Positions 8,185 to 27,138 of a DNA stretch of 32,000 bases are shown in pieces. This DNA comes from Moraxella nasovis. GTDB lineage: Bacteria > Pseudomonadota > Gammaproteobacteria > Pseudomonadales > Moraxellaceae. The stretch covers positions 540,001-572,000 of the forward strand of contig NZ_CP089976.1 of NCBI RefSeq assembly GCF_022701215.1. Reading direction: 5' to 3'. Below the pieces are notes generated by a model. The model saw only the letters and a list, made by a program, of their open reading frames with translations, was not told where the DNA came from and did not search any database. A program made the translations under genes and the position numbers. Numbering within the stretch: the stretch's first letter is position 1; each line of letters begins with the position of its first letter.

Positions 8185-11100
8185 TTATTGTTCTAAATAT
8201 TTTTCAGCTTGTGCCAAATCAACCGTAACAAGACTTGAAACACCTGCTGTCGGCATGGTGATGCCTTTTAACTCATCGGCAATTTGCATGGCAAGCTTAT
8301 TATGACTGATAAAAATAAACTGCACGCTGTCTGCAAGCTCATGGATTAAGCTTGTAAAGCGTCCGACGTTCGCATCATCAAGCGGGGCGTCCACTTCATC
8401 AAGCAGACAAAATGGTGCTGGGTGCTGCTTAAAGATTGCAAAAATTAAGCTTAATGCGGTTAATGTTTTTTCGCCACCAGACAGCACAGCAAGGCGTGAG
8501 TTTCGCTTGCCCTTAGGCTGAGCCATCAAAACAAGCCCTGCTCGCCATTTATCCGACTTTGGCAGGCTATCATCCTCCATTAACGTTAAGCTTGCCGTAC
8601 CACCCCCAAATACCTTGGAAAATAAAGCGTTTAGCTCTGTGTTTACTGCATCTAATGCCGCTAAAAATAGCGTTTTTGTCTTCTCATCAATCGCCCGAAT
8701 CGCATCTTGGAGCTTTATCATACTCTCGGTGATGTCAGAGATCTGTGCATCCATTGGCGATACTCTAGCATTTAGCTCATCAAGCTCGGCAGCGGCAGCA
8801 AGGTTTACCGCGCCGATCTTGGCAATTTCATCATTAATTGCACTAATGCGAGCAGAATTATCCTTAAACTTAGGCGTTTTTTGGCGAAAATCTGCAAGCG
8901 TTGATGATAGATTAAACGTCTCATCACACTTTCTCATCTGCTCACCAAAATCTTGTAAACGACTTAACGCCACGGCTGTATCTGCACCCACTTGGGCAGC
9001 TTTAGCTTGTTCTTTGGCAAGTTCAGCGTGCGACTGCGTTAAGTCTTCTTGTAGCTTAGTGTGCATTAGCTGTAAGGCTTTAGCTGCTGCTTCATGCTCT
9101 TCGCTGATGATTTTTAATCGCATGGTTTGGGCTTTAGCTTCCTTAAAGATAAGCTCAGCTTGCGGCAGTTTATCATCGAGCCGCTGTTGACTCTCGGTCA
9201 GCTTAGCAAGGTCTAAAGCCGCCTGTTTGGCATTTTTATCTGCCATCTCAAGCAGTCTTTTATTATGCGTTAAGCTTTGGGTTAATGCACTGTGTTTTAA
9301 TTGTAAATCTTGGCTACTGTCATGGTGGTGCTTAATCACACGATTAAGCTCATCAAGCTTAGCTGTTAAGTGCGCCAAATCTTTTTCAGACTGAGTAAGC
9401 TTTGGTAAGTGTTCTGCCAGCTTTTGAGTAATATCTGTGATTTCTTGCTCTAACGCCTTTAATTCTTGGACGATTTCGGCTTTTTCTTCGTCTAAGATTG
9501 CTTTATTTTTTGTAAAATTGTCTTTTTTGAGTTGTTCAAGTTTTATCTGGCTTTGTAATACCGTTTGTTCTTCTCGCAATTTATGCAATGCTGCTGTGGC
9601 TGCTGTCTTTTGAGCGGTATGCTCGTCGAGTAGAATTTTTTGGTTTTCAAGCTGAGCAGATAACGCCTTCATCTTAGTCTGCTGACCTTCTAACTCTTCT
9701 TCAAGCGTGTTTAAATCATCTTCTAGCACAGCCAAACGTTTGGTGTACTCTGCTTTTTGTGCCAAAAAATTGTCATGTTGTGAGCCAAACTTAGTAATGT
9801 GTAAAGTCCCGAACGCACCGACAATCCAGCCGTTCATCGTTAAAATCACAGCACCTGTACTTAGCAAATCGGCATACCGCTTGGTCAAATCATTTGCTTC
9901 ATCAAGCTCATCTATGCATAAATAACACCGCTCAAATAATGCTAGCTTTGGCGTGTCTATCAAGCGATTGATTGGTAATAACTGAGTGTGCTGTTCGCTA
10001 TGGGCTTTAGTGCCGATGGTTAATATCGCTTTAGGCATATCCTTGGCAGGAATGTGCCAAAATACAGCATCTGGCATAGTATCTGATATACAAGCATCTA
10101 ACCAAAACCCTAAAAAGCCATCAAGCACCGCTGCATAATTTTCGCCCATCTGGCTTAGGCGGATATGTTCTTTTAGGGTAGATAGACCCATTAAAGGCGA
10201 TGGCTTATCTGCTGACTGCAACGCCTGCTCTGGTTTTTTATGAACGATTTTATGTAAAAACTCATACTCTGCCATTAAGATTGCATGACGCTTTTGTAAT
10301 GTTGTAACTTGTGTTTGTGTATTTTTTAGGTTAACTTCTGTCGTCTCTACATCTGTCTTAATCGTTTGATTGTCTTGTAGATTAATCAGCTTATCTTCAG
10401 CAATATCAATTTGCTCAGTCAGTCTTATCAATCGATCATTATCTTTTGTATCATCGCTAAATTCTGTTGCACTAAGTGATAAGTCGTTATGCTTTTTAAT
10501 CCATTTTTCACGCAAGCTAAGCGTGCGACTCTTTTGGGTTTCGGCAAGTTTTTTGGCGTTTTGTAGTGAGTTTTTTTGCTCTTGCAAGGCTGTAAGATCT
10601 TGGCGAGCTTTTTGCCAAGCGTCTTGTGCTTGGTTTTGCGATTCTTGTACCGATTTTAGCTTGTCACTTTCGTCGGCAAGTAAGGGGGTGATACTGATAA
10701 GCTCAGCATCTATCTTATCAATATCAGCCTTAGCATGGGTCATGCTTTCTTGGGCGTCTTTTTGTGTCGCGATAAGCCGTGCTTGTTTTTCATCTACTTG
10801 GCTTAGCTCTTGGCTCATCGTATAAAAATTATGCTGTGCCGTTTGTTCTGCCATCTGGGCGTTATGGTATTTATCCTTGGCATCGTCTTTTAGCCACTGC
10901 CCTTCGGCAACCTTAGCCGACAGCTTATCAAGCTCAGCTTTAGCGCGATTAACCGACGCTTGCAATGTCGTTAGATGAGCATTCACCTCTTGCTCTTGTT
11001 GCTGATTTTGTTCATGATACTGCCACGCCTCAAAGATACGCTTTAGCAGATCTTCTTGGTTAATCTTAGCAAGCTCTTCGCTTAAGGCTTGGTATTTTTT

Positions 11101-11754: not shown

Positions 11755-12009
11755 TATATTCGTAGTTTTGTAATGTAATAAGTTATGCCAACAAAAAGGT
11801 GGGTATTTCCTATCTATTTGCAATCATAGCCGCCTATTTTATCATAATTTACCAAAAATCATTTGAGATGTTTTATATGACTGACCAAAACCAACTGGTC
11901 TTTTAGACTGCTGTTTAACTTTAACGTCGTTACAAAACAATAAAATAATCATCATTGCAAAAATCCAAAGCTTTAGTATAATGATTGCATCAATCACAGG
12001 AACTTTACT

Positions 12010-14521: not shown

Positions 14522-14721
14522 AGAATCACTCCTAAAAATCAAGACAGGTTGCATCAATCAGGCTGTATTATAATATATAGCGTTACGGTCTTGACGTAGG
14601 CATCAGCTCAGATCGGAAAAATAAACCAAACCAACCTTTGGCTTGGGGCTTGCCGCACCTATTGCACAACAAGCCCCATATTATAGCCATTTACTATCAT
14701 AAAAGCAAGAAAGATTTTAAA

Positions 14722-15027
14722 TTATTGAGCCGTTTCAGTCGCCTGTACCGCTTCAGCTGTGGCAGGTGCGTCCGTAGTAGCAGGTGCAGTCTCACTGGCT
14801 GTATCCGTCGCTGTCGCACTGGCAGGTGCAGCATCGGCTGCTAATTGAACCATGCTAGGCTGACCTTCATCGTCAAACTTAATTTCTTCAACTTGGGGTG
14901 CTTTTTCTTTGGCAATCGCTTGGGCTTCTGCCAGCTTATCAACCGCTGCCACTTCTTCGTGGTGTCCGCCACATGCTGTTAACACTACTGCTGATAAAAC
15001 AAGACCTAAAATGCTTTGAATTTTCAT
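14722..15027 (-). CDS. Lipoprotein with a low-complexity Ala/Thr-rich C-terminus
   Basis: The start at MKIQSILGLVLSAVVLTAC provides a lipobox. The tail is an Ala/Thr/Glu-rich repeat-like sequence. Confidence 0.65.
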   Translation of the reverse strand: MKIQSILGLVLSAVVLTACGGHHEEVAAVDKLAEAQAIAKEKAPQVEEIKFDDEGQPSMVQLAADAAPASATATDTASETAPATTDAPATAEAVQATETAQ

Positions 15028-15952: not shown

Positions 15953-16158
15953 GGTTGATTTTTGGTGTGGGTTTGGACTATTGTAACAAAAAACAGCGAT
16001 GAATAACATCAGTTAAATTTGGCTTTTAATATTCAAGATGCCCATCAATCGTTGGTGTGTTTGGTGGTTCAAGTGGTTGATTGGTGTTGTAAAGCATTTT
16101 TAAAATGAAATTTCACTAAAAATCACCAAAATCCAACCGCTTGCTCAATCTTTCACTT

Positions 16159-16509
16159 TCACTTTCCCTGCACTACATACATTCCCAAAGCCGTCAAAGC
16201 CAATGAACCCAAAACATGTAGCACAACCGCCATCAATGCCCCAAAAAACCGTCCGTTTTGGATCAGCGTTACCACTTCTAATGAAAAACTAGAAAAAGTC
16301 GTCAGCCCACCCAAAAAGCCTGTGATCAATAGCAGTTTATAGTGCGGATTATCCAGCCATTGTGCCAGTACACCAATCAAAAACGCCCCAAGCCAGTTCG
16401 CCGTCAGCATTCCAAGCGATAATGCCGTCTGCCCGCTCCATTGACTAAGTCCCCAACGCAGTACCGCCCCAGAGCCACCGCCTATTGCAACCATCAGCAG
16501 ATTATACAT
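16159..16509 (-). CDS. crcB: Fluoride ion channel CrcB/FluC
   Basis: About 116 aa with four TM segments. Motifs include AIGGGSGAVLRW and GFLGGLTTFSSF. The ATG at 16509 lies 2 nt after the DUF6428 stop. Confidence 0.88.
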   Translation of the reverse strand: MYNLLMVAIGGGSGAVLRWGLSQWSGQTALSLGMLTANWLGAFLIGVLAQWLDNPHYKLLLITGFLGGLTTFSSFSLEVVTLIQNGRFFGALMAVVLHVLGSLALTALGMYVVQGK

Positions 16510-16511
16510 AA

Positions 16512-16979
16512 TTAACAGCACCCTGAATTAGGCTTACAGACTTGACCAAATTCTGAAAGTTTCATTTTGGATTTTTGTGGCTTGGCAGGAATACCGCATT
16601 GGTCTTCGGCAAGGCAGACAGTGTGTTTATTTTTGAGTAAAAAATGTGTGCCGTCAAATGCTAAATCATATTTACCAATGGTATCACATTGGTATTCTAC
16701 CTCGATCTCTACATCAGGTAAATTGAGCTTTTCTTCGGAAAGTTTGATGATATCAAGTAGCTTGTATGCTTTTAGCCTATGGTCAAAATCATCGGCAGTC
16801 CACAACTGAAAATTAACAGTATTTTCTTGTCTAACCGTGCCACCACAATCAATAAAATGCTGACTAATTAGCCCCACTTCGGTAACGTGAAAATGTGGTG
16901 GCACTGTCGTACCGTCTTCTAGTATAAACGAGATGTTATCAACAGAACCCAAGATGTCTTTGATTTGTGAGAGTTTCAT
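16512..16979 (-). CDS. DUF6428-like protein (family commonly seen in ars clusters), Cys-rich C-terminus
   Basis: 155 aa. It reads MKLSQIKDIL...PPHFHVTEVG and ends in CKPNSGCC. The family assignment is from memory of ars-cluster neighbours and has not been searched. Confidence 0.6.
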   Translation of the reverse strand: MKLSQIKDILGSVDNISFILEDGTTVPPHFHVTEVGLISQHFIDCGGTVRQENTVNFQLWTADDFDHRLKAYKLLDIIKLSEEKLNLPDVEIEVEYQCDTIGKYDLAFDGTHFLLKNKHTVCLAEDQCGIPAKPQKSKMKLSEFGQVCKPNSGCC

Positions 16980-17040
16980 AATAAATACCTTTTAAGATGG
17001 TGAATGTAAAAAATATAAAAACAATGACCGCTTTGCCTGT

Positions 17041-18042
17041 CTAATTTTTCCCCCGATTGATCAGCCACACCAGCGACAACATCACAGGCACTTCCACCAG
17101 CACCCCCACCACCGTTGCCAATGCCGCCCCAGAGTGCAGGCCAAATAGAGATATCGCCACCGCTACGGCAAGTTCAAAAAAGTTGCTCGTGCCAATCAAG
17201 CAGGCGGGAGCAGAGATTTCGTGCGGTAATTTAAGCCATTTGGCAATTCCCATACTCAAAAAGAAAATGCCATAGGTCTGCACTAAAAGTGGAATGGCAA
17301 TCAGCACAATCACAAACGGATTTGACAAAATCGTACCTGCTTGAAAAGCAAACAACAGCACCACTGTCAAAAGCAAGCCAAAGATGGAAAAGGGCTTTAA
17401 TTTGGCGGTGAATTTAGCGATAGAGCGGTCAGATTTGATTAAAATTTTGCGAGTTAGCCAGCCTGCGACAAGGGGCAAAAGCACATACAAAACCGTGCTT
17501 ACAATCAAGGTCTGCCAAGGAATACTAATGTCGCTTACACCAAGTAGCAAGCCTGCAATCGGTGCAAAGGCAAAAATCATAATGATGTCGTTCACCGACA
17601 CCTGCACGAGTGTGTAGTTCGGATCGCCCTTGACCAACCCAGACCACACAAACACCATCGCCGTACACGGAGCCACGCCGAGCAAAATCATACCTGCGAT
17701 GTATTCTTGTGCCGTCTGTGCGTCCACCCAATCAGCAAACAGCAACCGAAAAAACAGCCAACCGACCAGAGCCATCGTAAAGGGCTTAATCAGCCAATTT
17801 ACTGCCAAAGTCATCGCCAAGCCCTTCGGCTTTTTGCCGACATCTTTGATGGCAGACCAGTCAATCTGAATCATCATCGGATAAATCATCAGCCAAATCA
17901 GCACGGCAATCGGCAAATTGATGTGGGCGATTTGTAGTGTCGCAATCTTTCCCACCGTATCAGTGAAATTAACCCCAATGACCACGCCCAAAATGATGGC
18001 AAGAGCCACCCAAATACTTAAAAATCGTTCAAAATTTCCCAT
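17041..18042 (-). CDS. acr3: Arsenite efflux transporter, ACR3 family
   Basis: I prefer the start at [12 protein letters not shown] (ATG ending at 18042, with GGAG upstream), 1 nt after the arsC stop. It carries the conserved [12 protein letters not shown] motif and about 10 TM segments. Confidence 0.92.
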
Positions 18043-18043
18043 T

Positions 18044-18490
18044 TTATGCTCCTTGTTTTGGGTGTTGTTTGGTGATGATTTCGCCATCTTCTTTGACAAA
18101 ATCCGCTTTCAAAGGCACAGGCGAGATGTCCAAAAATACTTCGGACGGACGGCACAGTTTCACGCCCTTTTCGGTGACAACAATCGGGCGATTGATTAAA
18201 ATCGGCTGGGCAAGCATTGCCGAAATGAGCTTGTCATCAGACAGCTCTGGGCGTTCTAAATTTAAGCGTTCGTATGGTTCAACATTGGTGCGAAGTAGTG
18301 AGCGTGGTGTGATATTCATTTTGGCGATTAACTCACGCAAAGTCGCTTCATCAGGCGGATTGTCCAGATAATGAATGATGGTCGGCTCAATACCCAAATG
18401 GCGAATTAACGCCAAAGTGTTGCGGGACGTACCGCAGTTTGGGTTGTGGTAGATGGTGATTGGGGTGTTTGATGTATTAGCACTTGGCAT
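18044..18490 (-). CDS. arsC: Arsenate reductase, glutaredoxin-coupled ArsC family
   Basis: [20 protein letters not shown] provides the catalytic Cys. LINRPIVV and LCRPSE are also present. I prefer the ATG at 18490, which has a GGAGG SD 5 nt upstream. The ORF-track start at 18505 remains an alternative. Confidence 0.92.
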
Positions 18491-18582
18491 AGTGCCCTCC
18501 GTCATTAGTTTAATTATTCAAGAAATATTGAATTATAAAAGCAAAAATAACCTGATAAAGCCATCAGGTGAGATTTAAGCGC

Positions 18583-18626
18583 ATTTTAGCAGGGGTTTTT
18601 AGATATTTCAATGGTTATTGAAATAA
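18583..18626 (-). promoter_or_regulatory. ArsR-type promoter/operator, copy A (upstream of arsC; no arsR directly downstream)
   Basis: The minus strand reads TTGAAA (18606-18611), a 17-nt spacer, then TAAAAT (18583-18588). The inverted repeat ATATTTCAAT-GGTT-ATTGAAATA (18603-18626) overlaps the -35. It is paralogous to copies B and C. Confidence 0.6.
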
Positions 18627-18778
18627 AAGAGCGGTCGGAAATCGCAAAATTTTTGTAAAATCCTATCGCTTGTATTTTTCAAGCTGTCTGAAAAAACCTT
18701 GTTCGAATACTTGCAGGTGCTATCATCAATCTTCTAATTTGGTTTATTTGATGATATAAGGTCGTCTCTTTTGTTCAA

Positions 18779-19873
18779 TTAATTCGCAAAGTTCGTGGCT
18801 CTTTGTAAATCCAACTCCAACGGATTGGAAAGCTCACAAAACCATTTAGCCCATCGTTCTGATATAGACGTTAGAGATATTTCATCAAATAGAGTATTTT
18901 CAGATTGAATTGCAAAAAATCGATTTAGTGAATTAGCTAAATTTTTATTTTCTAAAAATCTTCTACAAATCCATAAATGAATATCTACTAATTGCAAGCC
19001 AACATTACTATCACTTGACTTATAATCTATATCTATTGATGGCATATTTGATAAGTTTATACTTGGTAAAAATGGACCAATTTGTAAATTTGTGTCTGTA
19101 CTATTACTGATATTTTGATATAGTTTAGTTAGCCAATTTTGTGATTTGTTAAATTGAGACTGAATATCCACAATAATTTTTGTTGCACTTGATTGATTTT
19201 GTTCAATTCTATGACAAATCATAAAAATTACTGATTGAAAGGATGTGATATTTGGTGAAACTTGTAATATATTTTCTTTGGAATGAACATTGTAACCAAT
19301 CTCGGAAGGATTTTTTATCACCCATTTCATTGCATCGGAAATAATCTCAACTAAGCGTTTATCTGAAAAACAAGATGCTTTAAGTAAAATTTGTTCACAA
19401 ATATCAACCAGACTAGTTTCTGTCTCTTTTGAATTTATATTTATGCGTGCTTTCCAAGCCTGATTAGCTAAATCATCATCAAATAACTCTGCGATTGCAA
19501 GTAGCAAAGGATATCTTAATGGTGTCCAATACCAATTCCAAGGAACAGCAGGATTAACACCTTGGTCGAAGACTTGGTCAAAAAAACTGATAATTGCAAA
19601 ATCTTTTTTATTTAGCCTACAACAATCAAAATATATGTCATATTTTTGATATATATCTCCTAAATCATCAATAATTCTAACTAATCCACCATTACCCAGC
19701 TCATTAGCATGCAATTCACTCACTGACAATTTATTCTTTAAATTTATAACATCCTGTTGGGCTACGATGTCTAAATCAAATTTAGAACTCAATACTCCGT
19801 AATATAAGTATGGTTGGTCTAAATCAAAAAGGTTTGAACCAGAATTACCACTCTCATCTATATAAAAATACAT
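18779..19873 (-). CDS. DUF3800-family protein, function unknown
   Basis: The start at MYFYIDESGNSG matches the DUF3800 N-terminal IDESG hallmark. A C-terminal GLQLVDIHLW segment resembles the family LQxAD motif. The gene is visibly much more AT-rich than its neighbours. The family call is from memory and has not been searched. Confidence 0.7.
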   Translation of the reverse strand: MYFYIDESGNSGSNLFDLDQPYLYYGVLSSKFDLDIVAQQDVINLKNKLSVSELHANELGNGGLVRIIDDLGDIYQKYDIYFDCCRLNKKDFAIISFFDQVFDQGVNPAVPWNWYWTPLRYPLLLAIAELFDDDLANQAWKARININSKETETSLVDICEQILLKASCFSDKRLVEIISDAMKWVIKNPSEIGYNVHSKENILQVSPNITSFQSVIFMICHRIEQNQSSATKIIVDIQSQFNKSQNWLTKLYQNISNSTDTNLQIGPFLPSINLSNMPSIDIDYKSSDSNVGLQLVDIHLWICRRFLENKNLANSLNRFFAIQSENTLFDEISLTSISERWAKWFCELSNPLELDLQRATNFAN

Positions 19874-19920
19874 AACAATCCCTAAAATGCGCTTATATTT
19901 TTTAGTTAGCCTACAAACGC

Positions 19921-20220
19921 TTAGCAATTCTCACCACTGTCCTGACAGCATTTGTCCGTCAAAAACACCACCAACGCCATCATCAAATCCAAATTGGCGT
20001 AATAACGCACAAACCGCCCTTGCTGTTCGCTTTGCACCAGCCCAGCATGGCTTAATGTTTTAAGATGAAAAGAAAGGCTGTTGGGGGCGATGCCCAGTAT
20101 TTTTGCCAAATCGCCTGCAATCATGCCCTCCGTTCCCATTTTGGTAAGTTCCTGAAAAATCGCCAAACGAATGGGCGATGACAGGCTTTCAAAGAGTAGG
20201 CTTGCGTTTTGAGTGTTCAT
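19921..20220 (-). CDS. arsR: ArsR/SmtB-family metalloregulator with a C-terminal Cys triad (copy 1)
   Basis: 99 aa wHTH protein ([26 protein letters not shown]). The C-terminus is CC-x6-C (KCCQDSGENC), resembling the Acidithiobacillus-type As(III) site. Confidence 0.88.
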   Translation of the reverse strand: MNTQNASLLFESLSSPIRLAIFQELTKMGTEGMIAGDLAKILGIAPNSLSFHLKTLSHAGLVQSEQQGRFVRYYANLDLMMALVVFLTDKCCQDSGENC

Positions 20221-20251
20221 GGCTTGTGTTTATCCGTTGGATTGAAGGGGT

Positions 20252-20295
20252 ATTTTAGCAAAGACGTACAGATATTTCAATGATGGTTGAAATGA
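20252..20295 (-). promoter_or_regulatory. ArsR-type promoter/operator, copy B (upstream of arsR copy 1)
   Basis: The minus strand reads TTGAAA (20275-20280), a 17-nt spacer, then TAAAAT (20252-20257). An imperfect inverted repeat ATATTTCAAT...TTGAAATGA lies at 20272-20295. Confidence 0.6.
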
Positions 20296-20310
20296 TGGGC
20301 GTTTTTATTT

Positions 20311-20325
20311 TTCAGGCAGCCTGAA
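20311..20325. repeat. Palindromic DUS-variant TTCAGGCAGCCTGAA
   Basis: It reads as AGGCAGCCTGAA on the plus strand and AGGCTGCCTGAA on the minus strand. Both are Neisseriaceae DUS dialect forms. Confidence 0.7.
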
Positions 20326-20351
20326 AACCCAAATTGAAAAACCAAAAAACA

Positions 20352-20418
20352 ATGCCGTCTGAAAGATTGGTTTTCAGACGGCATTTTGGCAAAAACCGAC
20401 CTTTCAGGCTGTCTGAAA
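20352..20418. repeat. Inverted pair of exact AT-DUS 12-mers (hairpin terminator of the CueR-like gene) plus a TTTCAGGCTGTCTGAAA palindrome
   Basis: ATGCCGTCTGAA lies at 20352-20363 and its reverse complement at 20373-20384. The palindrome lies at 20402-20418. Together they form a composite junction repeat. Confidence 0.85.
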
Positions 20419-20422
20419 CCGC

Positions 20423-20806
20423 TTACTGTAAATTTTGTAATATCGCACAATGTGAACGCTCATCGCCTGCACATTCGTCGTGCCACGCCTGCAAGGTATT
20501 TTTCATCTGTTCCAACTGGGCGATTTTTTGAGCCAACGTGGCGATATGGCTGGCGGTCAGGGCTTTGACATCACAGCTTTTGCGGTTGGGGTTGTCTTGC
20601 AAGGCGAGCAATTCGCCGATTTGTGCCAAGCCAAAGCCCACTTCTCGGGCGTGGTGGATAAAGTGAAGCCGTGCCAAATCCGCTTGTTTGTAATCACGGT
20701 AGCCTGAAAAGGTGCGTTCGGCAGGGGTAAGCAAGCCCAATTTTTCGTAATCTCGGATTTGTTTGCTGGATAGACCGGTGATTTTGGCGACTTCGCTGAT
20801 TTTCAT
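20423..20806 (-). CDS. MerR-family Cu(I)-type metalloregulator (CueR/HmrR-like)
   Basis: The internal start MKISEVAKITGLSSKQIRDYEKLGLL gives 127 aa. It has Ser77 in RKSCDVK and a C112-x7-C120 loop (CAGDERSHC), as in CueR. The ORF-track extension to 21103 crosses the promoter and was discarded. Confidence 0.88.
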   Translation of the reverse strand: MKISEVAKITGLSSKQIRDYEKLGLLTPAERTFSGYRDYKQADLARLHFIHHAREVGFGLAQIGELLALQDNPNRKSCDVKALTASHIATLAQKIAQLEQMKNTLQAWHDECAGDERSHCAILQNLQ

Positions 20807-20853
20807 GGTTTTTTCTCCTTTACAAAACGTAACATAAAAGTTTTGAAAAACCC

Positions 20854-20884
20854 TTGACCTTGACGCAAGGTTAAGGATTATTAT
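20854..20884 (+). promoter_or_regulatory. MerR-type promoter with a 19-bp spacer and dyad operator
   Basis: It reads TTGACC (20854-20859), a 19-nt spacer, then TATTAT (20879-20884). The dyad ACCTTG-ACG-CAAGGT sits inside the spacer, and CTTGACCTTGACGCAAGGTTAAG is a 23-bp near-palindrome. Confidence 0.75.
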
Positions 20885-20968
20885 ATGTCCATACACAGCA
20901 AAACAGCAATACTGCTTGTGTATCCGTCCAGAACATTCTGGTTTATCAATCCAAAACGGAGAAATGTT

Positions 20969-21097
20969 ATGAACATCAAAAACAAAACTTGCCAATGTCC
21001 CAACTGCCCTTGTGGCACACACAACGCCAACTGCACTTGCGTTTGCTGTGCGGACTGCCAATGCACTACCGAGCAATGCTCGTGCAACTGCCAATAA
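20969..21097 (+). CDS. 42-aa Cys-rich metallothionein-like peptide
   Basis: The peptide is MNIKNKTCQCPNCPCGTHNANCTCVCCADCQCTTEQCSCNCQ, with 13 Cys in 42 residues, no aromatic residues, and CxC/CC motifs. A GGAG SD lies 7 nt upstream. It sits about 80 nt downstream of the MerR-type promoter. Confidence 0.65.
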   Translation: MNIKNKTCQCPNCPCGTHNANCTCVCCADCQCTTEQCSCNCQ

Positions 21098-21203
21098 GGG
21101 CAAACGCTGTTTTTAAACAAGTCCATGCCAAGTCATCACGGCTTGGTATGGCAAACAAACCAACTTAATTTATCCATTTTTATCCATGCTTTAAGGAGCT
21201 GTT

Positions 21204-21647
21204 ATGAACAATTTAAAAAAATACCTTACCGTTGCCGTGCTGTCTGTGGCACTTGGCGGTGTGGGCGGATTTGCCATTGCCAATACCACCCAGCAAAATA
21301 ATATGTCGCAAATGCACGAAAACATGATGAACAATCACGCCAAAATGGGGGCGATGAACCACGACATGAATGCCATGAACCAAAATAAAGCCAACCAAGC
21401 ACCGCACACCCAAGAATATATGCAGTCGATGAACGCCCTGCACGATGAGATGATGGTAGGCGTTGCCGACAGCGATGCCGACCGAGCCTTTGCCCGCTCC
21501 ATGATACCGCACCATTTGGGGGCGATTAAGATGGCAGAAGTTCAGCTTAAATACGGCAAAGACCCAGAAATGCGAAAACTCGCTGAACAAATCATCAAAG
21601 CCCAAGACCCCGAAATCAAACAGATGGAGCAATGGCTCAAAAAATAA
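21204..21647 (+). CDS. DUF305-family (CopM-like) periplasmic Met/His-rich protein
   Basis: It has a signal peptide, a Met/His/Asn-rich N-terminal region, and the MIPHHLGAIKMAE motif typical of DUF305. Confidence 0.85.
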   Translation: MNNLKKYLTVAVLSVALGGVGGFAIANTTQQNNMSQMHENMMNNHAKMGAMNHDMNAMNQNKANQAPHTQEYMQSMNALHDEMMVGVADSDADRAFARSMIPHHLGAIKMAEVQLKYGKDPEMRKLAEQIIKAQDPEIKQMEQWLKK

Positions 21648-21717
21648 ACCTGTCGCCCGCCAAGCCAGCTGGTTTGGTCGGGCAAATCTTGCCTTTAAAT
21701 AGGATTTAGGAGTTTTT

Positions 21718-22209
21718 ATGCGTAGCATGAAAAAAGCATTGGCAACAGGCGTGTTAAGTGTTTCTATCATCGCAGGGGCGGTATCCTTGTTTGTCATGAA
21801 CCGCCCAGCACAAGCCGTCAATCATGTGGAAGTGTGGAAAGACGCCAATTGCGGTTGTTGTGGCGAATGGGTAGAACACATGAAGAAAAACGGCTTTACC
21901 GTGAGCGTCCACAACACGGGCAACCGTGAAATGCGTGCCAAGCTCGGTATGCCTGAAAAATTTGCGTCCTGCCACACCGCCAAAGTGGGCGGTTATGTGA
22001 TTGAAGGACACACGCCGGCATCCGACATCAAGCGTCTGCTCACACAAAAGCCTAATGCCCTAGGTCTGGCAACCCCCGCCATGCCACTTGGCTCGCCCGG
22101 TATGGACGGCGAAGCCTATCAGGGTAAAAAGCATGATTACAACGTGCTTTTGGTGCAAAAAGACGGCACCAGCCAAGTGTATCAGGCTTACAAGGGCAAC
22201 CAAAATTAA
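21718..22209 (+). CDS. DUF411-family (CopG-like) periplasmic copper-binding protein
   Basis: It has a signal peptide, the CGCC motif (DANCGCCGEW), the CHT motif, and MPLGSPGMD. Confidence 0.85.
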   Translation: MRSMKKALATGVLSVSIIAGAVSLFVMNRPAQAVNHVEVWKDANCGCCGEWVEHMKKNGFTVSVHNTGNREMRAKLGMPEKFASCHTAKVGGYVIEGHTPASDIKRLLTQKPNALGLATPAMPLGSPGMDGEAYQGKKHDYNVLLVQKDGTSQVYQAYKGNQN

Positions 22210-22214
22210 ACAAG

Positions 22215-22252
22215 AACGCTGTTTTAAAAACAGCGTTTTTTTCAGACGGCAT
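22215..22252 (+). terminator. Intrinsic terminator followed by an exact AT-DUS
   Basis: An AACGCTGTTTT / AAAACAGCGTT hairpin with a T-run spans 22215-22243. It is followed by TTCAGACGGCAT at 22241-22252. Confidence 0.8.
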
Positions 22253-22282
22253 AGATTTTTAATTTTCAGGCAGCCAAAACGG

Positions 22283-22687
22283 TCAAACTTCACAATTTTT
22301 TTGCAGTCCCGTTATCACTTTGCAATGTGCCACGTCGTTTTCTTGGCAACCTTGCAAGGCGGTCAGGTGGGCTTTCATGTGCTGTAATTGTGCGATTTGC
22401 TCGTCAATCCGTGCGATATGGCGAGTGAGCAGTTCGGTGGCGTTATCACAGCGGTTGTGCGGTTGGCTTTGCATTTGCTGTAAGGCTTTGATTTCTTCAA
22501 CAGAAAAACCGACATGACGGCAGTTTTTGATGAATTTTAGGGTGTCTGTCATTTCTTGGTTAAACAGCCGATAGCCGTTTTCGCCACGAATGGGGCTAAT
22601 CAGCCCCATTTTTTCATAATAACGGATACTTTCAAGCGACAAGCCGACTTGCTCGCTGACGGTTTTTACCTGCAATAAATTTTTCAT
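22283..22687 (-). CDS. MerR-family divalent-metal-type regulator (ZntR/CadR/PbrR-like)
   Basis: The start MKNLLQVKTVSEQVGLSLESIRYYEKMGL gives 134 aa. It has Cys80 (HNRC) plus C114-x7-C122, the Cys pattern of divalent-cation MerR sensors. Confidence 0.85.
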   Translation of the reverse strand: MKNLLQVKTVSEQVGLSLESIRYYEKMGLISPIRGENGYRLFNQEMTDTLKFIKNCRHVGFSVEEIKALQQMQSQPHNRCDNATELLTRHIARIDEQIAQLQHMKAHLTALQGCQENDVAHCKVITGLQKNCEV

Positions 22688-22694
22688 AAAACGC

Positions 22695-22725
22695 TTGACC
22701 TTGTTCCGACAACAGGGTTTATGAT
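22695..22725 (+). promoter_or_regulatory. MerR-type promoter with a 19-bp spacer (drives the CDF gene)
   Basis: It reads TTGACC (22695-22700), a 19-nt spacer, then TATGAT (22720-22725). The spacer holds an imperfect dyad ACCTTGTT-n5-AACAGGGT. Confidence 0.7.
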
Positions 22726-22759
22726 AAACCATAAACAGTTATTTTAAAAGGGTAAAATC

Positions 22760-23368
22760 ATGTCTTGCCAATGCTCTACGCAAAACAACGCCGTACACTC
22801 GGACAGATACCGCAATATATTGTGGATTGTGCTTATTCTCAATTTCTCCATGTTTTTTGTGGAAGTCTTTATCGGCTGGCGGTCTGGCTCGGTGTCCTTG
22901 CTGGCTGACAGCTTGGACTTTTTGGGCGACAGTGCCAACTATCTCATCACGCTGTTTGTGTTGGGCAAAACCTTGCAAACTCGTGCCAAAGCCAGCCTGA
23001 TTAAGGGTATTTCTATGGGGCTAATGGGGCTTTGGATTTTGTTTACAACTTTATACAATCTATTTATGGGCGATGTACCAAATTATCACGATATGGGCGT
23101 GGTCGGCTTACTTGCTTTGGCGGTCAATGTAACCGCAGCGTGGCTGTTGTACCATTTTCGTGAAGGCGACAGCAATATGCAAAGCGTTTGGCTGTGTTCT
23201 CGCAACGATGCCATTGGCAACGTGATGGTGGTTTTGGCGGCGGTTGCGGTGTATTTTAGCCAATCCAAAATCCCTGATTTGCTGGTGGCAGGCATTATGG
23301 TGTATTTATCACTATCTGCAAGCAAAGCAATCATCAGTAGAGCTTGGTCGGAGTTAAAGGAGCATTGA
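22760..23368 (+). CDS. Cation diffusion facilitator (CDF) family transporter, short form
   Basis: 202 aa with LLADSLDFLGDSANY (a TM2 DxxxD-type site), about 6 TM segments and an N-terminal MSCQCS. There appears to be no room for the usual C-terminal cytoplasmic domain. Confidence 0.82.
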   Translation: MSCQCSTQNNAVHSDRYRNILWIVLILNFSMFFVEVFIGWRSGSVSLLADSLDFLGDSANYLITLFVLGKTLQTRAKASLIKGISMGLMGLWILFTTLYNLFMGDVPNYHDMGVVGLLALAVNVTAAWLLYHFREGDSNMQSVWLCSRNDAIGNVMVVLAAVAVYFSQSKIPDLLVAGIMVYLSLSASKAIISRAWSELKEH

Positions 23369-23385
23369 GATTTGTCTAAAATAAA

Positions 23386-23421
23386 AACGCTGTTTTGCTC
23401 ATGAAAAACAGCGTTTTTTTT
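23386..23421 (+). terminator. Intrinsic terminator of the CDF gene
   Basis: The stem is AACGCTGTTTT (23386-23396), the loop is GCTCATG, and the partner arm is AAAACAGCGTT (23405-23415), followed by a T-run. It uses the same stem sequence family as the terminator at 22215. Confidence 0.8.
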
Positions 23422-23493
23422 CAGGCAGTCTGAAAGGTCGGTTTTACAAATATGCCGTCTGAAAATTTGTCCGAACGGGTTTTCAGACGGCAT
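23420..23493. repeat. Composite junction repeat: TTCAGGCAGTCTGAA palindrome plus an inverted pair of exact AT-DUS
   Basis: The palindrome lies at 23420-23434. ATGCCGTCTGAA lies at 23452-23463 and its reverse complement at 23482-23493. Confidence 0.85.
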
Positions 23494-23527
23494 GGGTTTC
23501 GTTGGGTCTTGACCCAACCTTGTATCT

Positions 23528-23728
23528 CACCACCAAGACTAGCTATCTTGGTGATGGCATGGTAGATTATACCATCACCCTAAGTTACTTGGCAGTTTCT
23601 ACCCAACCTGAGTACTTTGATGCTGTCTCGTAGATTAAACCCGAGTAACTTTTTAATCATCGTACAATCTGAATGGTATCCAAGCGCTTGATTGATTTTC
23701 AATCATGACGCTGAATGAACAAGGCTAG
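23528..23728 (+). ncRNA. Candidate IS110 bridge (guide) RNA in the left non-coding end
   Basis: Structure is visible by eye. CACCAAG (23531-37) can pair with CTTGGTG (23547-53). A GGTG..ATGGTA-loop-TACCAT-CACC hairpin spans 23550-23579. A TGATTGA-TTT-TCAATCA stem lies near 23690-23708. The position matches where IS110-group elements encode their bridge RNA. Confidence 0.4.
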
Positions 23729-24736
23729 ATGACAATGACTTATTATGTTGGTATTGATGTTAGTAAGCACAAGCTGGATGTGGCTTGGCTTAAAGAGTTA
23801 AGTACAATGAAAGTCAAAACCAAAGTCTTTAATAATCACTTTGATGATTTTGAACACATCATTCATTGGCTTAAAACCAATCTTGGTACAGATGTCAGCT
23901 TCAATGACATTCATCTTATTATGGAAGCCACAGGGGTGTATCATGAACCTTTGGCGTATTATTTACACGATTTGGGTTTTAAAGTCTCTATCATCAATCC
24001 TGCCTTTGTCAAGCACTATGCAGACAGTTTAGGCGTAAGACAAAAGACAGATAAAAAAGACAGTATTGTCCTTGCCAGATACGGCAGAGCCACCCACCCT
24101 GATGCTTGGATTGCCCCAAGTATTGAAGCTCGTCATTTAAAGTCTTTGCTTTCTCGTCTTGATGCTCTAAATGAAGACTTACAACGAGAAGAAAACCGCA
24201 AAGAAAAAGCAGAAGTGGCAGACACAACCCCCATTGTTAAACAATCCATTGATGAGATGATTGTGGCATTAAAATTGGCAATCAGCAAATTAAACCAAGA
24301 CATTGACACTCATATCAACAACCACCCCAAACTTAAAGAAGAGCAAACACTCTTACAAAGCATCAAAGGAGTAGGACAAGTCATTTCAAGACAAATGCTA
24401 ACTCTGTTTAATACCAAGCAATTTAACAATGCCAAACAAGTCTCTGCCTTTTTAGGGTTAATTCCCAAACAACAAGAATCAGGATTGTTTAAAGGCAGAT
24501 CAAGACTTGCCAAAACAGGCAATGCTCAATTAAGAGCTAAGCTATATATGGCAGCAGTTGTTGCCACCAAGTACAATCCAGACATTAAAGACCAATACGA
24601 ACGCTTACAACAAAATGGCAAATGCAAAATGCAAGCTTTATGTGCTTGTATGCGTAAATTGGTACAAATCTGCTTTGGTGTGATCAAACACCAAACTCCC
24701 TACACCCCACAAGTTAGGATAGAAAATATGGCTTGA
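23729..24736 (+). CDS. IS110-family transposase/recombinase
   Basis: 335 aa with the N-terminal YVGIDVSKHKLDV (DEDD RuvC-like domain) and the C-terminal LQSIKGVGQVISRQML...GLIPKQQESG (Tnp_20 domain). Confidence 0.92.
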   Translation: MTMTYYVGIDVSKHKLDVAWLKELSTMKVKTKVFNNHFDDFEHIIHWLKTNLGTDVSFNDIHLIMEATGVYHEPLAYYLHDLGFKVSIINPAFVKHYADSLGVRQKTDKKDSIVLARYGRATHPDAWIAPSIEARHLKSLLSRLDALNEDLQREENRKEKAEVADTTPIVKQSIDEMIVALKLAISKLNQDIDTHINNHPKLKEEQTLLQSIKGVGQVISRQMLTLFNTKQFNNAKQVSAFLGLIPKQQESGLFKGRSRLAKTGNAQLRAKLYMAAVVATKYNPDIKDQYERLQQNGKCKMQALCACMRKLVQICFGVIKHQTPYTPQVRIENMA

Positions 24737-24780
24737 CAAGGGGTGAGGAGAGATGGTATCTACAAGCTGAAAACCAATCT

Positions 24781-24826
24781 TTCAGACGGCATTTACTTTT
24801 GATTTAGGCTTTCAGACAGCCTGAAA
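24781..24826. repeat. Composite junction repeat: exact AT-DUS plus TTCAGACAGCCTGAA palindrome
   Basis: TTCAGACGGCAT lies at 24781-24792 and TTCAGACAGCCTGAAA at 24811-24826, just downstream of the SulP stop on the minus strand. Confidence 0.85.
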
Positions 24827-24836
24827 GCCCCACCAA

Positions 24837-26327
24837 TCAATGCCCCATCACAATATCCACATCTTCGGATTTGTCGTGTACACCGAATCTGTCCACGAGC
24901 GTTTGGCTGGCTTCGTTTAAGCCATATACACTCACATTCGCCCCTAATTTGCGGTATTTGATAACCACTTTATCTAAGGCTGAGATGGCAGTTACGTCCC
25001 AAAAGTGGGCGTGAGTCAAATCAATGCTGACATCGGTAATGCCTTGTTTGCCAAAGTTAAATTGGGCAATAAAATCATCGGCAGATGCAAAAAACACTTG
25101 TCCTACCACAGCATATGCCAAACTTTTGGGGCTGTCGGTCGGCAAGGTATTTATCACCATATAGCGTCCGATTTTGTTGGCAAAAAACAAAGCGGCGAGC
25201 AGCACGCCAGCAAATACACCCAGTGCCAAATTGTGCGTAAACACCACGATGGCGACCGTTACCACCATCACCACGTTAAAGCCGACAGGGTGGCTTTTAA
25301 GCTCTTTGATTGAAGCCCAATTAAATGTGCCGATAGACACCATAATCATCACCGCCACCAGTGCAGGCATTGGGATAATTTTGATTAAATCCGCCAAAAA
25401 CACCACCATAATCAGCAAATACACACCTGCCAAAAAGGTAGAAAGTCGTGTGCGACCGCCTGATTTGACGTTAATCACCGACTGCCCAATCATCGCACAG
25501 CCCGCCATTGCCCCCATTAAGCCTGACGCAATGTTAGCGATGCCTTGCCCTTTACATTCACGGTTTTTGTCGCTGTCGGTTTCGGTCATCTCGTCCACGA
25601 TGGTCGCCGTCATCAAGGATTCAAGCAGTCCCACCATCGCAAGGCTAAATGAATACGGCAAAATAATCCACAAGGTCTCCAAGTTTAGCGGTATATCAGG
25701 CAACAAAAATACAGGCAAGGTATCAGGCAGCTGCCCCATATCGCCCACTGTGCGTACATCAATGCCCAGTGCCACCGTCAAAGCGGTGAGCGTGATGATG
25801 GTAACGAGTGGCGATGGGATAATTTTGCCAAGTTTGGGAATATAAGGAAATAGATAAATAATCGCAAGACCCAATGCCACAAGGGCGTAAGTATGCCATG
25901 TTACACCCGTCAGCTCTGGCAGTTGTGCCATAAAAATCAAAATCGCCAAGGCGTTCACAAAGCCGATGACCACCGCCCGAGCCACAAATCGCATGAGCGA
26001 GCCAAGCTTTAAAAAGCCTGCGATAATCTGAATGACTCCTGTCAAAATCGTTGCCGCCAGCAGATACTCTAAACCGTGTTCTTTGACGAGTGTAACCATC
26101 ACGAGTGCCATCGCCCCTGTCGCTGCCGAAATCATCGCAGGACGACCGCCGACAAAGCTAATCACCACCGCAATACAAAATGACGCATACAGCCCCACTT
26201 TGGGGTCAACCCCTGCAATGATAGAAAAGGCAATCGCTTCTGGAATGAGTGCCAGCCCCACCACCAAGCCTGAGAGCATATCGCCACGCACATTACAAAA
26301 CCATTGCTGTTTTATGCTGTCAATCAA
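24837..26327 (-). CDS. SulP-family inorganic anion transporter with a C-terminal STAS domain
   Basis: Motifs include [26 protein letters not shown], many TM segments and a STAS-like tail ([26 protein letters not shown]). I prefer the TTG start at 26327, which has AGGAG 7 nt upstream. The ORF-track ATG at 26441 adds a non-homologous extension. Confidence 0.85.
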
Positions 26328-26460
26328 TGAAAAACTCCTAAAATCAACCAAAATCAAAAGGCATGGCCATCGCACGCCTAAAACAAAAAAACCAAGCCTT
26401 TGCTTGGCTAACTCACGCAGGTTTGCCCTACCGTCAATCAATCAAAAACAAACAACCACA

Positions 26461-26760
26461 CTAACAACGCCCGCCACTATCTTGACAGCATTCGTCCGTC
26501 AAAAAGCCTGCTAACTGCTTCATCAAATCCAAATTGGCATAATAACGCACGAACCGCCCCTGCTGTTCGCTACGCACTAAGTCTGCGTGGGTGAGCGTTT
26601 TTAGATGAAAGGATAAATTGTTGGGGGCGATGTCTAGTTTTTTGGATAAATCACCTGCCACCAGCCCAGATTTTCCTGCTCGTGTGAGCATTTGAAAAAT
26701 CGCCAAGCGAATGGGCGATGACAGACTTTCAAAAAGTTTGCTTGCGGTTTTGGGGTTCAT
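26461..26760 (-). CDS. arsR: ArsR/SmtB-family metalloregulator with a C-terminal Cys triad (copy 2)
   Basis: 99 aa and clearly paralogous to copy 1 ([27 protein letters not shown]-terminus [10 protein letters not shown]). It has the same orientation as copy 1. Confidence 0.88.
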
Positions 26761-26790
26761 AAGTGAAGATGCGTGCTGTTAAAAGGGGGT

Positions 26791-26834
26791 ATTTTAGCAG
26801 GGGCGAGATAATATTTCAATGATAATTGAAGTAT
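26791..26834 (-). promoter_or_regulatory. ArsR-type promoter/operator, copy C (upstream of arsR copy 2)
   Basis: The minus strand reads TTGAAA (26814-26819), a 17-nt spacer, then TAAAAT (26791-26796). The inverted repeat ATATTTCAAT-GATA-ATTGAAGTAT spans 26811-26834. Confidence 0.6.
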
Positions 26835-27138
26835 TAGTGCTGTGCCGACAAACAAATATGGCTGTGATGTGGGCGTGTAAAAAAGACAGGGCTACACTAA
26901 ATTAGCTTAAAACTCCTCTTGCAAAGTGCATTTGTGGTAGAATAATAAGGTTATATTGGCATAAATATTTATCAGGTTACTAGCTGTTGGCAGCAACTTG
27001 GACAAAGAAAAGTTCAAGTGGTTTAATCTGCTGTTTTTGCTGTATTGCACGGCAATCTTTATAAACTAAGCATGACATAAGTGTTAATCTAGTTTAGCTC
27101 TAAATTTGTTTTTATGGAAAAAATAATCATGAAAATAC

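Follow-up and report, generated by a model that had tools for sequence, protein, structure and literature searches.

The copper and zinc/cadmium resistance genes in a 32,000-nucleotide stretch of the Moraxella nasovis genome carry the DNA uptake sequences (DUS) of another family, the Neisseriaceae. Very probably, this stretch (positions 540,001 to 572,000 of contig NZ_CP089976.1; we call the whole of it the window) holds a composite metal(loid)-resistance cluster of about 11 kb whose copper/zinc block evolved in DUS-using Neisseriaceae and entered Moraxella later. The block lies between two arsR units, and DUS of two dialects of the Neisseriaceae are found at the 3' end of every gene in it. 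The genes of the cluster are, in order, crcB, DUF6428, ACR3, arsC, DUF3800, arsR, CueR, DUF305, DUF411, MerR, CDF, IS110, SulP, and a second arsR. This gene list was proposed in an earlier note on this DNA, and Pfam and NCBIfam confirmed it.

The 12-mer ATGCCGTCTGAA, or AT-DUS, is the dialect of pathogenic Neisseria species. The window contains six exact copies of it, as the earlier note had reported: 20352 (+), 20373 (-), 22241 (-), 23452 (+), 23482 (-), and 24781 (-). The 12-mer did not occur in any of 100 dinucleotide shuffles, and the mean expectation for its 10-mer core was 0.07. The pairs at 20352/20373 and 23452/23482 are inverted, and we recovered both as the terminator-forming pairs that the note had described: no terminator-like hairpin in the region scores higher than theirs (-21.3 and -27.9 kcal/mol, z about -6). 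In all, AT-DUS pairing at gene 3' ends is seen as two complete pairs and one truncated pair.

The second dialect is found in palindromes. The 12-mers of AG-kingDUS and AG-simDUS (AGGCAGCCTGAA and AGGCTGCCTGAA) overlap as the palindrome TTCAGGCAGCCTGAA, whose two strands read as AG-kingDUS and AG-simDUS, respectively. (A further DUS word, GCCGTCTGAA, is named alongside ATGCCGTCTGAA, AGGCAGCCTGAA, and AGGCTGCCTGAA.) Four 15-nucleotide palindromes of the form TTCAG[GA]C[AT]G[CT]CTGAA are present in the window, at 20311, 20403, 23420, and 24811. The one at 20311 is exact and holds both AGGCAGCCTGAA and AGGCTGCCTGAA; the other three are one base off per arm. Besides these, the stretch 22259-22280 has half of a palindrome, and 18677-18693 has a decayed one. 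AG-kingDUS and AG-simDUS are near-equal in number in Simonsiella muelleri (Frye et al., PMC3630211), and both are enriched in Alysiella filiformis, A. crassa, S. muelleri, and Kingella oralis (PMC10715097). The palindromes, which the note had matched to other dialects of the Neisseriaceae, are thus of the king/sim type of Alysiella, Simonsiella, and K. oralis. At the A. crassa locus (UFSO01000002.1), the palindrome is the commonest 12-mer: in 20.6 kb it is found 7 times, along with 22 king/sim 10-mers.

The DUS are arranged in modules, none of which is assigned a strand:

18677 to 18693: decayed king/sim-type palindromic DUS (TTTCAAGCTGTCTGAAA), in the arsR-arsC gap, where two related islands that are described below (CP084164.1 and CP146200.1) have an exact palindrome
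20305 to 20418: DUS module A, with the exact king/sim palindrome at 20311, the AT-DUS inverted pair at 20352/20373, and the variant palindrome at 20403
22215 to 22280: terminator and DUS module B, with an ordinary hairpin, then the single AT-DUS at 22241 and the half palindrome at 22259-22280
23384 to 23493: terminator and DUS module C, with an ordinary terminator, the variant palindrome at 23420, and the AT-DUS inverted pair at 23452/23482
24767 to 24827: DUS module D, with an AT-DUS hairpin that abuts the end of the insertion sequence (IS) and lacks its left arm, and the variant palindrome at 24811

Module C is an inverted copy of module A (27 nucleotides, 93%), and the hairpin of module D has the same loop as module A's hairpin at 20352-20384 (39 nucleotides, 90%). 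DUF411 and CDF each have an ordinary terminator of their own, with the DUS downstream of it, so the DUS would be at most auxiliary hairpins in Moraxella.

The DUS-dense stretch is limited to 20.3-24.8 kb (about 4.5 kb; the block is at roughly 20292-24830), plus the one relic at 18.68 kb. It is flanked on the left by the promoter of arsR-1 and on the right by the arsR-2/sulP unit, and it ends at the 3' end of sulP. In the 4.5-kb block, AT-DUS have a density of 1.3 per kb, which rises to 1.8 per kb when the IS is left out. For comparison, a locus from Neisseria sp. Dent CA1/247 has 28 DUS in 20.5 kb (1.4 per kb), with a count of 26 for AG-DUS: the DUS density of the marked block is that of a Neisseria chromosome. 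Scanning for the DUS of eight published dialects gave no hits at 1-18.6 kb (the note had seen none by eye in 1-18.5 kb) or at 24.9-32 kb. As an outside control, we scanned 1,302,953 bp from 70 Moraxellaceae loci and found no DUS of any dialect; nor are there any in 24 kb of M. nasibovis chromosome. The note had spoken of an island of about 10.7 kb with hallmarks of the Neisseriaceae, and had placed the six AT-DUS within 20.3-24.9 kb. The marks are present in the 20.3-24.8 kb block and, save for the relic, missing from the rest.

The backbone around the cluster is from Moraxella. Searching with the flanking methyltransferase gave the 70 loci, of which the best (about 30) are from Moraxella at 73-88% identity, followed by Psychrobacter. 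The backbone proteins of the window are singletons in clustering at 90% identity, and therefore the host is a poorly sampled Moraxella species. The DUS-free, Moraxellaceae-like backbone of the earlier note is upheld by these matches and by the DUS scans. Composition also sets the metal genes apart: their mean GC content at third codon positions (GC3) is 0.54, versus 0.39 in 15 backbone genes (Mann-Whitney p = 2e-5). The note had described the island as GC-rich apart from the DUF3800 gene. This is correct for the metal genes, but besides DUF3800 (0.21), the GC3 is also low for DUF6428 (0.35) and IS110 (0.35).

The IS within the block is of local origin:

23494 to 24766, plus strand: IS110-family element (transposase at 23735-24736; right end at about 24766, left end between 23494 and 23521)

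Its transposase has the Pfam domains DEDD_Tnp_IS110 and Transposase_20 and is 98% identical in amino acid sequence to a multicopy protein of M. nasibovis. At the nucleotide level, M. nasibovis CP089975.1 has at least six copies that match the element at 96-97% identity, and more distant relatives are found in Psychrobacter and M. lacunata. These matches rule out the IS110 as an element from the donor. The earlier note had counted it as part of the island with neisserial marks, but it is a host-type Moraxella element with backbone-like GC3. It inserted beside a DUS hairpin after the block's arrival. The left arm of module D was lost, and the left flank of the IS also lacks the missing ATGCCGT, so we cannot confidently link this loss to the IS.

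All of the IS110 copies, in M. nasibovis and at 23494-23520 of the window, have a hairpin-like sequence (GTTGGGTTTCG...CCCAACCCAACC) at the left junction, which is absent elsewhere in the window, and several copies have GGGCTGA(A) at the right junction. These junction sequences either belong to the element itself or represent a target that is conserved. As a side possibility, this RNA-guided element might have recognized a DUS-like CTGAA target; in the window, it abuts the truncated DUS.

The same marks are found on metal cargo in other genomes. A megablast search of the island against plasmids gave just two matches, both at 78% identity, to SulP and ACR3. Via the ACR3 match we found CP084164.1 (Pasteurella multocida s4), which has an island of arsR-arsC-ACR3, CDF-cadR, and DUF411 with a multicopper oxidase, beside three integrases. 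An inverted pair of AT-DUS and three exact palindromes all lie within 5.5-8.6 kb of this sequence, and 11 Haemophilus-type (Hin-type) uptake signal sequences (USS) are found from 12.5 kb through the rest of the 50 kb that we examined. The label of CP084164.1 is that of a 274,750-bp P. multocida plasmid, from a mixed culture of rabbit origin. With gltX, argE/C/B/H, priA, ftsN, rpmE, CRISPR-cas, and Haemophilus-type USS at regular intervals, it is probably a chromosome segment instead of a plasmid. In another Pasteurellaceae contig (ERR175990), palindromes at 9513 and 10682 flank merR-CDF, with one AT-DUS at 11763.

Within Moraxella, the M. nasibovis-like sequence CP146200.1 has marked cargo at 9.1-19.1 kb, which follows the genes ParA, DnaB, DUF2857, AcaB, DUF3158, and SSB, of the type found in integrative and conjugative elements (ICEs). 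The cargo has four AT-DUS, one AG-DUS, one muc-type DUS, and three palindromes, while the 9 kb of ICE backbone has no DUS. Three DUS dialects are found inside 170 bp of this cargo (14630-14800): the muc-type DUS AGGTCGTCTGAA and paired AT-DUS, then a decayed palindrome, and an AT-DUS beside an AG-kingDUS. The window's ACR3 is 79% identical in amino acid sequence to the ACR3 of all three of these islands (CP084164.1, the ERR175990 contig, and CP146200.1), and its ArsR operator is also found in related islands.

A. crassa shares kilobase-scale segments with these Moraxella and Pasteurellaceae genomes at 88-97.6% nucleotide identity. These alignments make recent traffic of metal cassettes across families directly visible. 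We also noticed a region of Moraxella sp. FZFQ2102 (CP099960.1, 934152-954766) with about 17 kb that is rich in king/sim words (6 palindromes and 13 ten-mers) and includes 2.1 kb at 97.6% identity to A. crassa. Either this is a large Alysiella-derived stretch in Moraxella or the organism is misassigned.

The window's cassettes are not close to any of these relatives. They are 66-76% identical in nucleotides, and 60-80% in amino acids, to the DUS-marked versions. The best homologues of DUF411 come from a short contig where an AG-DUS directly follows the gene (74%) and from Neisseria sp. Dent CA1/247 (69%). N. meningitidis, N. gonorrhoeae, and species of the N. lactamica type were considered as recent donors and rejected, as the CDF, IS110, and DUF305+DUF411 searches gave no donor above 74% identity. 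More generally, the well-sampled human AT-DUS species are excluded as recent donors because CDF reaches at most 66% and DUF411 at most 74%. Yet the palindromes lie at homologous sites: immediately 3' of merR and of CDF, as in A. crassa, and after arsR, as in CP084164.1 and CP146200.1. This suggests that selection kept the DUS marks through most of the coding divergence (~66% nucleotide identity), and most of that divergence would have occurred inside DUS-selecting Neisseriaceae.

Could a single donor lineage supply both dialects? Some metagenome contigs (51-58% GC) have very dense king-DUS (for instance, 26 in 13.8 kb) along with 5-11 canonical DUS, and a short 3.8-kb metagenome contig has 3 canonical DUS beside king-DUS. 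Therefore, the two dialects coexist densely in some uncultured Kingella-like genomes. Because these K. oralis-like contigs carry both, one lineage could have supplied both. We scanned for AT-DUS next to palindromes, and the K. oralis-like contigs found in this way had no homologues of the window's genes.

To our knowledge, a genome accumulates DUS only if its ComP-dependent uptake machinery favours them, and for this reason we propose that the marked DNA spent a long period of its evolution in DUS-using Neisseriaceae. The DUS motif enhances ComP-dependent DNA uptake and transformation (PMC3630211). The likely donor lineage would be related to the Conchiformibius/Alysiella/Simonsiella/Kingella (CASK) clade, and either it also used AT-DUS or the block may have passed later through an AT-DUS-using host. 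Entry into Moraxella might have been by sequence-independent natural transformation, with recombination that was illegitimate or used short homology. Otherwise, an ICE or integrative island, with its backbone outside the window, might have carried the block in. In Moraxella, the DUS would have no role in uptake, but they would make any released DNA efficiently re-importable by Neisseria.

Several observations weigh against this account. First, a collection of 5.8 billion proteins has no close donor, and the best matches there are 66-74% identical in amino acids. CDF is about as distant from A. crassa (63%) and from Moraxella (62%) as from its best match (66%, Pasteurellaceae), and the closest relative of DUF305 is a Psychrobacter protein (66% over part of its length). 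Second, the ars and sulP units have no intact DUS and could have other origins. Third, gene annotation and a tRNA scan found no integrase, tRNA, or conjugation genes in the window, and we did not find the empty site: the 70 Moraxellaceae methyltransferase loci have no other gene in common with the window. Finally, our view of the host is 32 kb of a 2.03-Mb genome, which could have other DUS-bearing regions. Of the earlier note's claim that the island came from a DUS-using Neisseriaceae donor, the neisseriacean origin is supported by the density and the dialects of the DUS, but no sequenced Neisseria is a close donor, and direct transfer is not favoured over an indirect route.

The alternative that survives best concerns the route. 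The DUS could be fossil marks on a cluster that came as ICE or island cargo from other Moraxella or from Pasteurellaceae, with its mobile backbone lost or outside the window. We consider this a serious possibility, just short of probable. Equivalent DUS-marked cassettes are beside ICE genes in CP146200.1 and beside the three integrases in CP084164.1, and the window has the IS110 in common with M. nasibovis at 96-97% nucleotide identity. There is also a 12-bp direct repeat around the island, each copy of which is a possible border:

16067 to 16078, no strand: left copy of GTTCAAGTGGTT
27012 to 27023, no strand: right copy of GTTCAAGTGGTT

The repeat brackets the region of deviant composition, and when the two border zones were shuffled 20,000 times, a common 12-mer arose in 263 cases (p ~0.013); as the zones were picked post hoc, it is only suggestive as a border. 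On the other hand, the 16 kb to the left and the 5 kb to the right are free of ICE and integrase genes, and the 32-kb window has none of the ICE modules (conjugation, partition, replication, or integrase) that are present beside the cargo of CP146200.1. Also, the window's cassettes are no more than 66-76% identical in nucleotides to all of the ICE-borne versions, and all six AT-DUS are still exact, which fits, without proving, a short stay outside a DUS-selecting host. Because DUS-marked cassettes ride an M. nasibovis ICE and adjoin Pasteurella integrases, an intermediate from outside the Neisseriaceae is as likely as direct transfer: direct transformation and delivery by an ICE or island via other Moraxella or Pasteurellaceae are about equally plausible.

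A more speculative idea, which we think is improbable, is that the multi-dialect modules (AT and king/sim here, and also muc-type in M. nasibovis) are not leftovers. Instead, they would act as a "passport" for each cassette, for uptake by Neisseriaceae with differing dialects, while ICEs and sequence-independent competence carry the cassettes on to Moraxellaceae and Pasteurellaceae. If so, the resistance genes of the animal upper airway would form one pool across families.

It is very unlikely that the block is a contaminating fragment from Neisseriaceae that was mis-joined into a Moraxella contig. The motifs do change abruptly at 20.3 and 24.8 kb, and the databases do hold mislabelled or contaminated records. 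However, the Moraxella-type IS110 inside the DUS block speaks for a true location in a Moraxella genome. Moreover, the block is between two paralogous arsR units whose GC3 is like its own, the window is part of a single 2.03-Mb contig (2,028,236 bp), and the same kind of insert is found in independent genomes. That the host itself uses DUS, so that the motifs are native, has in its favour just the presence of the motifs and is effectively refuted: where about 1.3 DUS per kb would be expected, the 27 kb of flanks have none of any of the eight dialects; the backbone protein resembles those of Moraxella; and 1.3 Mb of Moraxellaceae DNA and 24 kb of M. nasibovis chromosome have no DUS either.

Returning to the neisseriacean origin of the copper/zinc block, its genes form two units with divergent promoters:

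20423 to 20806, minus strand: CueR, the Cu(I)-responsive MerR regulator, 127 amino acids (TIGR02044, 156.2 bits; cut-off 147.4)
20854 to 20884, plus strand: MerR-type promoter, TTGACC and TATTAT with a 19-nucleotide spacer that has the dyad ACCTTG-ACG-CAAGGT (read from the sequence)
20969 to 21097, plus strand: metallothionein-like open reading frame of 42 amino acids, about 30% cysteine (MNIKNKTCQCPNCPCGTHNANCTCVCCADCQCTTEQCSCNCQ), unannotated, 3' of the CueR-type promoter
21204 to 21647, plus strand: DUF305 (CopM-like) periplasmic metal-binding protein (Pfam)
21718 to 22209, plus strand: DUF411 (CopG-like) protein (Pfam)
22283 to 22687, minus strand: CadR/ZntR-like MerR regulator (the best family is CadR-PbrR, below its cut-off)
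22696 to 22726, plus strand: MerR-type promoter of the CDF gene, TTGACC and TATGAT with a 19-nucleotide spacer that has a dyad (read from the sequence)
22760 to 23368, plus strand: short CDF (CzcD-like) divalent-cation efflux protein (Pfam/NCBIfam)

In the first unit, cueR is divergent from the 19-bp-spacer promoter for the Cys-rich peptide, DUF305, and DUF411. In the second, the CadR/ZntR-like merR is divergent from the gene for the short CDF efflux protein. The second MerR likely starts at M16 of an open reading frame of 149 amino acids. We rejected a 226-amino-acid reading frame for cueR, as it has a spurious 5' extension. The extension hides the 42-amino-acid Cys-rich reading frame. At the same place, A. 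crassa and M. nasibovis (two loci, one of which is CP146200.1) have a Cys-rich reading frame of 47 amino acids that is 100% identical among them. Genes of 47-48 amino acids are called there in both M. nasibovis loci, and the call in CP146200.1 (13619-13765) translates to a peptide without cysteine; these calls are probably in the wrong frame. The Cys-rich peptides have no match in Pfam.

To the left of the block is the arsenic unit, and to the right is the SulP unit:

16159 to 16521, minus strand: crcB fluoride channel (Pfam CRCB, 1.6e-26; GC3 0.50), the last gene of the ars unit
16512 to 16979, minus strand: DUF6428 protein (Pfam, 2.1e-60; GC3 0.35)
17041 to 18099, minus strand: ACR3 arsenite efflux transporter (NCBIfam acr3 equivalog, 399.5 bits; cut-off 282.8)
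18044 to 18505, minus strand: glutaredoxin-type arsenate reductase ArsC (TIGR00014, 138 bits; cut-off 106)
18578 to 18622, minus strand: third copy of the ArsR operator/promoter, 5' of arsC (TTGAAA-17-TAAAAT over the dyad TTCAAT..ATTGAAATAT)
18779 to 19927, minus strand: DUF3800 gene (30% GC, GC3 0.21), between arsR and arsC
19921 to 20291, minus strand: arsR-1 (gene 19921-20220, promoter/operator 20247-20291)
24837 to 26441, minus strand: SulP/STAS anion transporter (annotated from Pfam)
26461 to 26830, minus strand: arsR-2 (gene 26461-26760, promoter/operator 26786-26830)

The ArsR-controlled unit consists of arsR-1, DUF3800, arsC, ACR3, DUF6428, and crcB, with a second ArsR-operator promoter before arsC. 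The assignment as an ars operon is based on an ArsR subfamily match, equivalog scores above the cut-offs for ArsC and ACR3, and the three copies of the operator, which precede arsR-1, arsC, and arsR-2. At the end of the unit, crcB and DUF6428 overlap by 10 nucleotides; the genes for fluoride efflux and for arsenic resistance seem to share a transcript. A scan with Rfam gave no hits, and thus no fluoride riboswitch at crcB. The DUF3800 gene looks like a separate, later insertion: it is bracketed by a 17-nucleotide inverted repeat (18573-18589 and 19882-19898), and related islands have a DUS palindrome alone in its place between arsR and arsC.

ArsR-2 controls the SulP transporter. The segment with arsR-1 and its promoter is a direct repeat of 26462-26830 (77-87% nucleotide identity), and the two ArsR proteins are 75% identical. 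The closest relative of the SulP protein is beside an ars cluster on the M. osloensis plasmid NZ_CP068110.1 (85% amino acid and 78% nucleotide identity), which contains no DUS. The right-hand SulP unit is probably from the plasmid pool of the Moraxellaceae.

Beyond the island, the housekeeping genes thyA, apbE, ubiM, agcS, cmoBA, smc, bioF, bioC, and an rsmC-like methyltransferase are upstream, and a type III restriction-modification system is downstream. A perfect tandem array, (TTCGCAA) x 6.1, lies at 27169-27211, 5' of the type III mod gene (ATG at 27272), with a strong promoter-like site, TTGACA-16-TAAAAT, to its left (27139-27166). The array may be a repeat for phase variation or for tuning of expression. 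The methyltransferase on a contig labelled as Streptomyces cinereus JCM 3040 (BMPS01000009.1) is 83% identical to a Moraxella protein, and this assembly is probably contaminated.

It is established that uptake sequences can be footprints of intergeneric transfer and that DUS dialects can be used to map islands. What this analysis adds is that multi-dialect DUS mark a pool of metal-resistance cassettes that is common to three families. Uptake sequences serve as a lasting barcode of the past hosts of a piece of DNA, and in this case they show resistance cassettes for As, Cu, and Zn/Cd moving among mucosal bacteria of the Neisseriaceae, Moraxellaceae, and Pasteurellaceae. A simple word search can trace such traffic in genomes without DUS of their own. 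Given that its AT-DUS are intact, the marked DNA would still be a preferred uptake substrate for AT-DUS Neisseria, and Moraxella could be a reservoir that hands such genes back.

We found no description of DUS-marked islands in Moraxella in the literature that we searched. The closest counterparts to the window are in the genomes above. The A. crassa locus has the same gene pairs in the same orientation (merR-CDF and cueR/Cys-rich peptide/DUF305), including the small Cys-rich reading frame between cueR and DUF305. However, its proteins are 46-63% identical to those of the window (~66% in nucleotides), it has no AT-DUS, and the window adds DUF411 directly after DUF305. CP146200.1 and CP084164.1 also have merR-CDF, arsR-arsC-ACR3, MerR-DUF305, and DUF411, with AT-DUS pairs and king/sim palindromes that are limited to the cargo. 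They differ in having ICE or integrase genes next to the cargo, as well as CopA and a multicopper oxidase, none of which is in the window; the window has crcB, DUF6428, DUF3800, and SulP instead, and identity between them is 60-80% in amino acids.

Among known systems, Kroll et al. (1998, PNAS 95:12381), as cited in PMC7371117 and PMC2397512, reported neisserial DUS in Haemophilus genes as footprints of intergeneric transfer. Both cases have one family's uptake sequences in the genome of another, and both involve co-residents of mucosa. Here, though, the recipient is Moraxella, the cargo is metal resistance, two dialects are present, and the cassettes recur in three families. Mapping of DUS dialects has been used to detect islands, ICEs, and their donors within the Neisseriaceae (PMC7371117). 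As in our analysis, a local dialect that departs from the baseline of the host points to the donor clade. That study used DUS deserts and foreign dialects in DUS-rich genomes, whereas the window has a DUS-rich patch in a DUS-free genome from outside the family.

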